Virus record (IMG/VR): IMGVR_UViG_2541047165_000034
Origin: a virus
Taxonomy: Duplodnaviria; Heunggongvirae; Uroviricota; Caudoviricetes
Strand: one strand, 5' to 3'
Length of the DNA: 9,620 nt
In this document: positions 7,520-8,206 of the stretch, piece after piece
Layout of the letters: every line of letters starts with the position of its first letter
Position numbering within the stretch: the first letter of the stretch is position 1
Made by a program: the position numbers and the translations under genes
The notes under the pieces: generated by a model
Seen by the model: the letters and a program-made list of their open reading frames with translations, nothing else
The model's database searches: none
Told to the model about the DNA's origin: nothing

Positions 7520-8206
7520 TTATTCTTTGTCTCCAATAACTAACTTAAAATCCCTGTTTTTTTGCGGGGATTTTGGATTCATCCCCGACTCCTTAAGCCA
7601 TCTCTCTATAGTCCCAACTACAGGGACATCATTCCATTTATTGCGTAAGTGCGCGTATATCTCTGCGGATAGCCCGGGTAAACTGGCATTAGGGTATTTT
7701 TTCCAAGTGTTACAAGCTATAGATAACGCTGTTGATTTATGCCTGTTTGTTTTTCCTTTCTTTGCTTTACTACGGTCTTCACTGATAATTTTCTTTACAT
7801 TAGCTATATCACGTACTGATTTTAATAAACTCTCCGACACTAAAACCGCATATCTTTCACGTAACTGGTCTGCCAGTCTGTTGAAACCAAGAACTTCAAA
7901 TATAATAGCAGCTTTCAAAACATCATTGAATTCTGAATATACACTATTAAATTTTTTATCAATATCATCACCATACCCAGCACATACAGAAATATTAACC
8001 TTTAAATCCTTATTTTCTATCTCTGACGATAATGATAATCTCTCCTCCAGAGACATTTTAGATGGCGTGATATTTGCCATATCGCATATCATTTTTTTTA
8101 CAAAAGCAGACGCCAGCTCATCTCTAATATAATCTGCAATAGTATTAATATCCTTCGCATCATTATGGTCAAATTCAATTGCAGCAATGATTTTATTTTC
8201 TGACAT
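7520..8206 (-). CDS. hypothetical protein (228 aa), AT-rich; acidic helical N-terminal region and basic, possibly HTH-like C-terminal region
   Basis: The ATG at 8206 lies inside the last codons of int (14-nt overlap) with GGTGG 5 nt upstream. Composition is protein-like, whereas the antisense ORF 7527-8132 is S/L/F-rich. GC content is well below the flanking int and xis genes. No family recognised. Confidence 0.8.
   Translation of the reverse strand: MSENKIIAAIEFDHNDAKDINTIADYIRDELASAFVKKMICDMANITPSKMSLEERLSLSSEIENKDLKVNISVCAGYGDDIDKKFNSVYSEFNDVLKAAIIFEVLGFNRLADQLRERYAVLVSESLLKSVRDIANVKKIISEDRSKAKKGKTNRHKSTALSIACNTWKKYPNASLPGLSAEIYAHLRNKWNDVPVVGTIERWLKESGMNPKSPQKNRDFKLVIGDKE

Follow-up and report, generated by a model that had tools for sequence, protein, structure and literature searches.

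The AT-rich open reading frame that lies between the integrase gene and the alpA-like gene of this viral stretch raises a simple question: is it cargo that was acquired beside the integrase, or does it belong to the regulatory machinery of the element that carries it? A preliminary description had presented this 228-aa frame, here called X, as variable cargo in an integrase-proximal slot, possibly with a defence function, and had kept an island regulator as a fallback. The window, by which we mean the whole 9,620-nucleotide stretch of DNA that was analysed, is 100% identical to DNA of E. coli E2855, where it forms an island of ~10 kb between tRNA-Ile and nfeF.

All of the major genes of the window are on the minus strand (Table 1). 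The YlcI/YnfO, Icd-like, DUF4222, primase and SSB genes and the terminal ORF are shared with EcCICFT073, whereas the int end and the capsid module differ; the backbone thus matches the prototype of the Gram-negative PICIs, and the window is accordingly a PICI-type phage satellite. The features that characterise Gram-negative PICIs and cf-PICIs were all found, namely an inward-facing int, an alpA-type regulator, a primase with an origin, att sites of its own and an absence of tail and lysis genes, and the window corresponds to the tRNA-Ile2 / CLP_protease genotype of PMC10111431. At the island ends (L001 18522-18800 and 8406-8946, outside the window) the 3' end of tRNA-Ile is present in duplicate, and both att arms bear a doubled motif of the arm type, AGGATACCTATAGGATACCGT / AGGATACC. 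The doubled AGGATACCTATAGGATACCGT copies are likely to be the arm-type sites of the integrase, of the kind reported for related integrases in PMC10111431. Directly downstream of the D5-type primase, positions 3800-4036 contain at least ten GGTGAACAGT iterons, in both orientations, around an AT-rich core; the island's replication origin is probably located here.

Table 1. Features of the window around gene X and along the remainder of the satellite, in gene order from int
Feature	Position	Strand	Remarks
Tyrosine integrase gene (int), 475 aa	8193-9620	-	Arm-DNA-bind_3 and Phage_integrase (Pfam), phrog_1; transcription inward
Shine-Dalgarno sequence of X, GGTGG	8212-8216	-	Inside the int coding sequence; 5 nt ahead of ATG 8206
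Gene X, 228 aa	7520-8206	-	ATG start; same CDS as hypothetical protein WP_001293559.1 in RefSeq
Swappable cassette	7787-8240	-	X residues 1-139 and last ~12 int codons; acidic, helical, GC 0.32
Conserved C-terminal module of X	7523-7786	-	Residues 140-228; basic arm and predicted three-helix winged-helix-like domain; pI 9.95
Phased repeat array, candidate X operator	7451-7520		Upstream half of X-alpA spacer; starts 20-21 bp apart
Array site 1, AATCCAGTT	7512-7520	-	Overlaps last base of X stop codon
Array site 2, AATCCAGAT	7492-7500	-	
Array site 3, AAACCAGAT	7472-7480	-	
Array site 4, AAACCAGAT	7451-7459	+	
18-nt inverted repeat, sites 3 and 4	7443-7488		Arms 7443-7460 and 7471-7488, 10 nt apart, 89% complementary
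Palindrome/hairpin over alpA Shine-Dalgarno	7384-7417	-	Consensus TATCACC-N18-GGTGATA; constant in all X subtypes
alpA-like HTH_17 gene	7190-7387	-	PF12728, E = 1.3e-12; phrog_66
YlcI/YnfO gene (convergent) and Icd-like ORF			Follow alpA
DUF4222 protein gene			Between Icd-like ORF and primase
D5/P4-alpha-type primase gene	4039-5871	-	
SSB gene			Between primase and ClpP-protease/major-capsid fusion
ClpP-protease/major-capsid fusion gene	540-2429	-	Only structural gene in the window

Free exchange of the late module is evident from sister islands that have this int-X-alpA module but, where the window has its ClpP-capsid fusion, carry either the full HK97 head and terminase set of a cf-PICI or a capsid of the lambda type together with a decoration protein. 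The downstream replication module also varies among X islands and contains either a D5 primase or an AAA_25 helicase. In one island at the same chromosomal site (L002) a HEPN-domain gene, at 4899-5612, is located between the replication and capsid modules; the equivalent position of the window, 2654-3086, holds only ~430 bp of AT-rich non-coding DNA. It appears that the true accessory slot of such islands is the one between these two modules. Regarding the annotation of the window itself, ATG 7378 is the more likely start of alpA and is favoured over GTG 7387. A 252-aa frame at 6472-7230 (minus strand) overlaps two annotated genes, the Icd-like one and, on the other strand, that for YlcI/YnfO, and is almost certainly spurious. 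No Rfam family reached the gathering threshold anywhere in the window, and in the region 6300-7600 the relaxed cut-off of E<=1 produced nothing above noise, so that no C4/isrK-type immunity RNA was detected.

X is a real gene under purifying selection. Among 5,426 complete E. coli genomes, 58 carry it with an intact frame, and pN/pS among its alleles is 0.13-0.26. What the preliminary description had reported of the gene itself is confirmed. The frame is AT-rich compared to its neighbours, with a GC content of 0.349 (0.317 in the N-terminal part and 0.401 in the C-terminal part), int having 0.508 and alpA 0.485. Its start and ribosome-binding site are embedded in the 3' end of int, the ATG (8206-8204) and the int stop codon (TAA, 8195-8193) producing an overlap of 14 nt. 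The split into an acidic, helical N-terminal part and a basic, HTH-like C-terminal part is also borne out, by calculated pI values of 4.96 (residues 1-139) and 9.95 (residues 140-228) and by the structure prediction, which is all-helical and ends in a three-helix, winged-helix-like C-terminus. The claim that X and int are co-expressed is plausible from the overlap together with the lack of a promoter-like site inside int.

The preliminary description had also recognised no known family in X, and this holds for the homology searches. X has no family match in Pfam, NCBIfam, PHROGs or PADLOC, with 0 families at E<=1 in a scan of PADLOC-DB v2. Nothing usable was obtained from Pfam for 127 relatives of X or from PHROGs for 10 other N-terminal types, and tblastn of X against 50,697 phage records produced zero matches. 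A sequence profile search of the PDB gave only a chance-level match, between the last helix of X and the HTH of P-element transposase. Homologues nevertheless exist: 86 were found at E<=0.001, across the Enterobacterales, and 150 X-family representatives at E<=0.001 came from a profile search run exhaustively over 1.84 billion representatives. This is a family of about 150 representatives at 50% identity without an entry in any domain or defence database. It is without description in the PICI literature (PMC6092414, PMC10111431, PMC11773190, PMC13612085 and bioRxiv 10.1101/2022.09.08.507074), and no account of the gene was found in the literature on Gram-negative PICI repressors. X is a member of an undescribed family that is confined to the int-X-alpA module of Enterobacterales PICI/cf-PICI satellites.

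If X occupied a slot for variable cargo, unrelated genes would be expected there in related islands. Instead the same family was found in the slot of every related island examined, and it is only the N-terminal two-thirds of the protein that is exchanged. A homologue of Int terminates at the X start in 51 of the 51 loci for which upstream DNA was available, and a homologue of AlpA begins 110-182 nt past the X stop in 63 of 63 (these counts are of all fetched loci, of which about 40 are non-redundant); in nearly all loci the X start overlaps the int stop. At the same E. coli site, related islands encode a 238-aa or a 266-aa "hypothetical protein" in the X position, and homologues in this position are also present in Klebsiella, Salmonella, Pectobacterium, metagenomes and IMG/VR islands. 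The partner integrase is mostly of the 474-488-aa type. This association is close, not absolute, as one island (L026) combines X with an integrase of the P4 type, from which it is separated by 37 nt, and with a canonical Phage_AlpA gene. X is a fixed part of an integrase-X-AlpA module in one satellite lineage and is not random cargo. The proposal of a variable cargo slot is therefore not supported, and a defence function for X, with no matching PADLOC model, is unsupported. Conservation of the protein at this position across related elements, which the preliminary description had named as counting against its proposal, is essentially what was found; it tells against the cargo framing and for the regulator that had been offered as an alternative, which is also the reading favoured by a conserved DNA-binding-like domain and cognate repeats upstream of alpA. 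Overall, the earlier interpretation is partly supported.

The two parts of X evolve in very different ways. The conserved C-terminal module consists of a basic arm, SKAKKGKTNRH, and the predicted winged-helix-like domain, with the consensus TW.KYPNAS..GL..EI..HL...W.D.P...T...WLK.SG.NP..KPKNR.FKLV (for the window type the motif can also be given as TW.KYPNAS...T..RWLKESG...KPKNR.FKLV). The prediction has the features expected of a winged helix, i.e. a three-helix bundle followed by a short C-terminal strand or wing and structural similarity to solved domains; the best structural matches are the winged-helix protein Fur, the Cdc6/Orc WH domain, the sigma54 RpoN box, the cullin WHB domain and ROQ. 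Preceding this module, residues ~95-139 form a semi-conserved helical hairpin in which G107 is nearly invariant. The N-terminus, by comparison, falls into at least 35 BLAST-unlinked classes among 160 members, 11 of these classes being multi-member. The exchange is visible at the DNA level: between the window and L004 identity drops to 0.3-0.45 only over 8240-7787 and is 0.87-1.0 on either flank. Compared with L002, the window is unrelated from 8240 to ~7305, a region that takes in X and the spacer in full and extends ~25 codons into alpA. The pattern of exchange of the N-terminal cassette is what would be expected if its surface were engaged in an arms race with phage proteins.

A phased array of repeats is found immediately beyond X. 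The motif AAWCCAGWT occurs 5 times in the window against 0.35 expected, a number that was reached in 0 of 200 shuffles, and four of the five copies lie in the 132-bp X-alpA spacer. In E. coli, Klebsiella, Salmonella and Pectobacterium alike, the copies of the type-A array keep the same distances from the stop of X, whereas the rest of the spacer diverges. Of 39 unique spacers, 23 show a direct-repeat periodicity at 20-23 bp that exceeds the value in 95% of shuffles. Islands with other subfamilies of the X DNA-binding domain carry other repeats, which again begin at the X stop codon. Subfamily A, that of the window, has three direct copies and one inverted copy of AWCYAGWT at 20 bp; B has four direct copies of AATAGCTGGCTA at 21 bp, C two to three copies of TAGCCGGTTA, D three direct copies of TCATAACGCGYT at 21 bp, and A2 an inverted pair of ACGCGTTAGC. 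The inverted repeat formed by sites 3 and 4 would, as RNA, give a strong hairpin followed by a U-rich stretch (the fold of the whole 151-nt spacer has z = -4.4); it is missing from type-B islands, in which all repeats are direct. No promoter was found by scanning between int and alpA, and no canonical terminator was found after X. The palindrome over the alpA Shine-Dalgarno sequence could be either an AlpA autoregulatory site or a stem that sequesters the ribosome-binding site. The fifth copy of the motif, AATCCAGTT at 6770-6778 (minus strand), is within the divergent ylcI/icd promoter region. It was considered as a second operator and rejected; since the corresponding region of L004 or L008 has no AWCYAGWT, this copy is probably there by chance.

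Which protein might recognise the array? The comparison with L002 and L003, at the same chromosomal site as the window, is informative. Their Int proteins are 96-97% identical to that of the window and their AlpA proteins are identical to it over residues ~20-65, recognition helix included, and yet identity in the C-domain of X falls to only 35% and the repeats are of another type, with four direct copies resembling AATAGCTGGCTA at 21 bp. More generally, the AlpA recognition helix QTLANWA (QTLANWA.TG) is nearly invariant in types A, A2, B and D, type C having RTLANWH. One AlpA cluster (at least 85% identity, same recognition helix) occurs with motif A and with motif B, and motif A is also accompanied by three other AlpA clusters. 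At the level of sequence, the repeat array travels with the X DNA-binding domain. One exception to this co-variation was seen, between A2 and D (L047/L072 vs L063/L069, first 100 nt past the X stop): the X DNA-binding domains are dissimilar and the spacers otherwise non-homologous, and yet an ACGCG core and one AlpA subtype are in common. When these A2-type and D-type islands are compared, homologous DNA is first encountered at about the constant palindrome and extends through alpA, which places the repeats in the X-linked block. Since the two are adjacent, co-inheritance of repeats and X could be plain linkage. Other uses of the repeats were considered and rejected: they are not arm sites of Int, whose arm motif differs and sits at the att ends, nor are they the origin, the iterons of which are at 3800-4036. 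Furthermore, the X-type motif was found in neither att arm of L001. By comparative inference, the winged-helix domain of X is the most economical candidate for the array-binding protein.

The location of the array directs attention to alpA. AlpA is the master activator in Gram-negative PICIs, and its over-expression alone leads to uncontrolled excision and replication, so that alpA must be kept tightly off; helpers induce alpA transcription, but the inducer and the existence of any repressor are unknown in these elements (PMC6092414). The reading that we prefer, with a probability of roughly 0.5, is that X is a sequence-specific DNA-binding regulator that binds the array and gates alpA, its variable half sensing a signal from the helper phage. 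As the X start overlaps the int stop, X would be translated together with Int by translational coupling. The basic arm and winged-helix domain would then bind the four 20-bp-phased AAWCCAGWT repeats at the stop codon of its own gene, and X bound to the array would gate alpA, the master activator of the island. By analogy with the logic of other satellites the favoured mode is repression, or a roadblock to transcription that enters alpA by read-through from Pint. It counts against the reading as a whole that the array, being well upstream of alpA, need not overlap the alpA core promoter. Alternatively, X could activate alpA, a mode with which the upstream position of the array is equally compatible. 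The hypervariable N-terminal two-thirds would be a specificity or sensor module, most plausibly a surface that is engaged by a helper-phage protein to flip the switch. Beyond the co-inheritance of array and domain we infer each of these steps, from DNA binding itself to the promoter that is targeted, the sign of the control and the nature of the signal. In a stronger form, which we put forward only tentatively and hold to be a good deal less probable, X would be the helper-sensing master switch of one Gram-negative PICI/cf-PICI lineage: coating of the array would hold alpA off, a helper protein acting on the N-terminal cassette would release it, and cassette swaps (at least 35 classes) would re-target islands to other helpers.

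Some of the evidence could be read differently. Were X an anti-phage or helper-interference effector, adaptive cargo by int whose variable N-terminal domain inhibits phage proteins, then its hypervariability, its exchange by recombination and its low GC would all be accounted for, and defence genes near int are known from satellites; Rousset et al. (cited in PMC13612085) are said to have reported, in 2022, such genes at the P4 hotspot. However, neither X nor any of its 127 relatives gives a PADLOC or Pfam match, no enzymatic or toxin-like domain was seen, and accessory genes are located elsewhere in these islands, as is the HEPN gene of L002. Moreover, the slot is occupied by one family throughout, whose DNA-binding-like domain is conserved and whose cognate repeats lie on the DNA of the island. 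A constant domain of this kind, directed at the element that encodes it, suits regulation better than an attack on a phage; the effector reading is improbable. The same winged helix and phased repeats, together with the start-stop overlap and the finding of X only beside int, could indicate a partner of the integrase, i.e. a directionality or architectural factor or a chaperone kept at a fixed ratio to Int by translational coupling, that acts in excision or integration and not in alpA transcription. Small basic winged-helix proteins on phased repeats are typical of recombination directionality factors, examples of which are lambda Xis, P2 Cox and L5 Xis. The X-type repeats are, however, about 2.1 kb from the att arms, which hold AGGATACCTATAGGATACCGT and no X motif, and the X DNA-binding domain and repeats have been replaced beside an Int that is 96-97% identical. 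A hypervariable N-terminal domain would be unexpected in a cofactor of Int, X is found in L026 after a gap and with an integrase of a different type, and Xis-like function is already supplied by AlpA-type proteins (PMC10111431, PMC11773190). We consider such a role for X unlikely.

It is also conceivable, at a low probability, that the repeats serve something other than X, as autoregulatory sites of AlpA, host-factor sites or transcript structure, and that the function of X is unrelated to them. AlpA does activate its own promoter in EcCICFT073 (PMC6092414), A2 and D have both the AlpA subtype and the ACGCG core in common, and the terminator-like hairpin of sites 3 and 4 could be formed by the type-A transcript. 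Against this, the repeats change while the AlpA recognition helix stays nearly invariant, to the extent that a single AlpA cluster goes with motifs A and B, and the A2/D block boundary assigns the repeats to the side of X; nor is the hairpin conserved in type B. Phased repeats beside the gene of their binding protein are a feature of ParR/parC and iteron systems. This resemblance might suggest that X and its repeats form a cis-acting maintenance element of the excised island, whether for centromere-like partition, as replication iterons or as a recognition site for packaging. Such a role is very improbable, as the probable origin is the GGTGAACAGT field downstream of the primase, no partner NTPase is encoded, cf-PICI relatives have their own TerS and TerL far from the array, and the gene that directly follows the array is, in each of the 63 loci, that of the master regulator.

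As a regulator of alpA, X would invite comparison with Stl/Rpr of the SaPIs and Gram-positive PICIs. These are likewise encoded by int-adjoining satellite genes. They pair a DNA-binding domain with a second domain that is highly diversified, an architecture that X, with its predicted winged helix and its at least 35 N-terminal classes, may share; they control the promoter region of the induction cascade and sense the helper (PMC6092414), which is the role proposed here for X. No sequence or Pfam relationship was found, with no HTH_3, HTH_19 or other Pfam/NCBIfam match for X or the 127 relatives. The DNA-binding domain of Stl/Rpr is an N-terminal CI-type HTH, whereas that of X is C-terminal and winged-helix-like, and Stl/Rpr are divergent from the operon that they regulate (stl/str), whereas int, X and alpA are all on one strand. 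X cannot be filed as a member of Stl/Rpr, since it differs both in homology and in gene orientation; it may possibly be a functional analogue of these proteins, not a homologue.

The AlpA/Vis/Xis-type HTH_17 regulators of PICIs and P4 are small DNA-binding regulators of the integration zone, as X probably is, and AlpA is both the immediate downstream neighbour of X and its likely regulatory target. X does not match PF12728 or PF05930 (Phage_AlpA) and, at 228 aa against about 60-100 aa, is three to four times larger; it has a variable N-terminal domain and co-varies with DNA repeats, whereas the recognition helix of AlpA is nearly constant. The Bro-N network proteins of the PICI "dynamic zone", PLE CapR included, also join a DNA-binding module to extensively shuffled partner domains, and some of them act as repressors (PMC10111431). 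X has no Bro-N, AntA or KilA-type domain and lies between int and alpA, whereas their genes are downstream of alpA; the X family is not mentioned in the four-zone scheme of that survey (PMC10111431). Finally, the repeats of iteron-binding replication initiators form the origin, unlike those of X, from which the GGTGAACAGT field is separate.

X is a concrete candidate for the control point of helper switching in its lineage, the Klebsiella and Salmonella cf-PICIs included. If the proposed role is true, it would address an acknowledged gap, namely how Gram-negative PICIs sense their helper. Natural variants exist, both as near-identical islands that differ in the N-terminal cassette and as islands in which DNA-binding domain and repeats have been exchanged jointly. 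The case also counsels caution, in that an AT-rich ORF adjoining int is not always defence cargo. X is not a general requirement for induction, because the prototype EcCICFT073 is helper-inducible via alpA (PMC6092414) and has no X: only a spacer of 365 bp separates int from alpA in this island (L029). Within this spacer, at L029 8185-8250, the motif (G/A)AACAAC recurs about every 10 bp, and these repeats may serve alpA as a control array of another kind.
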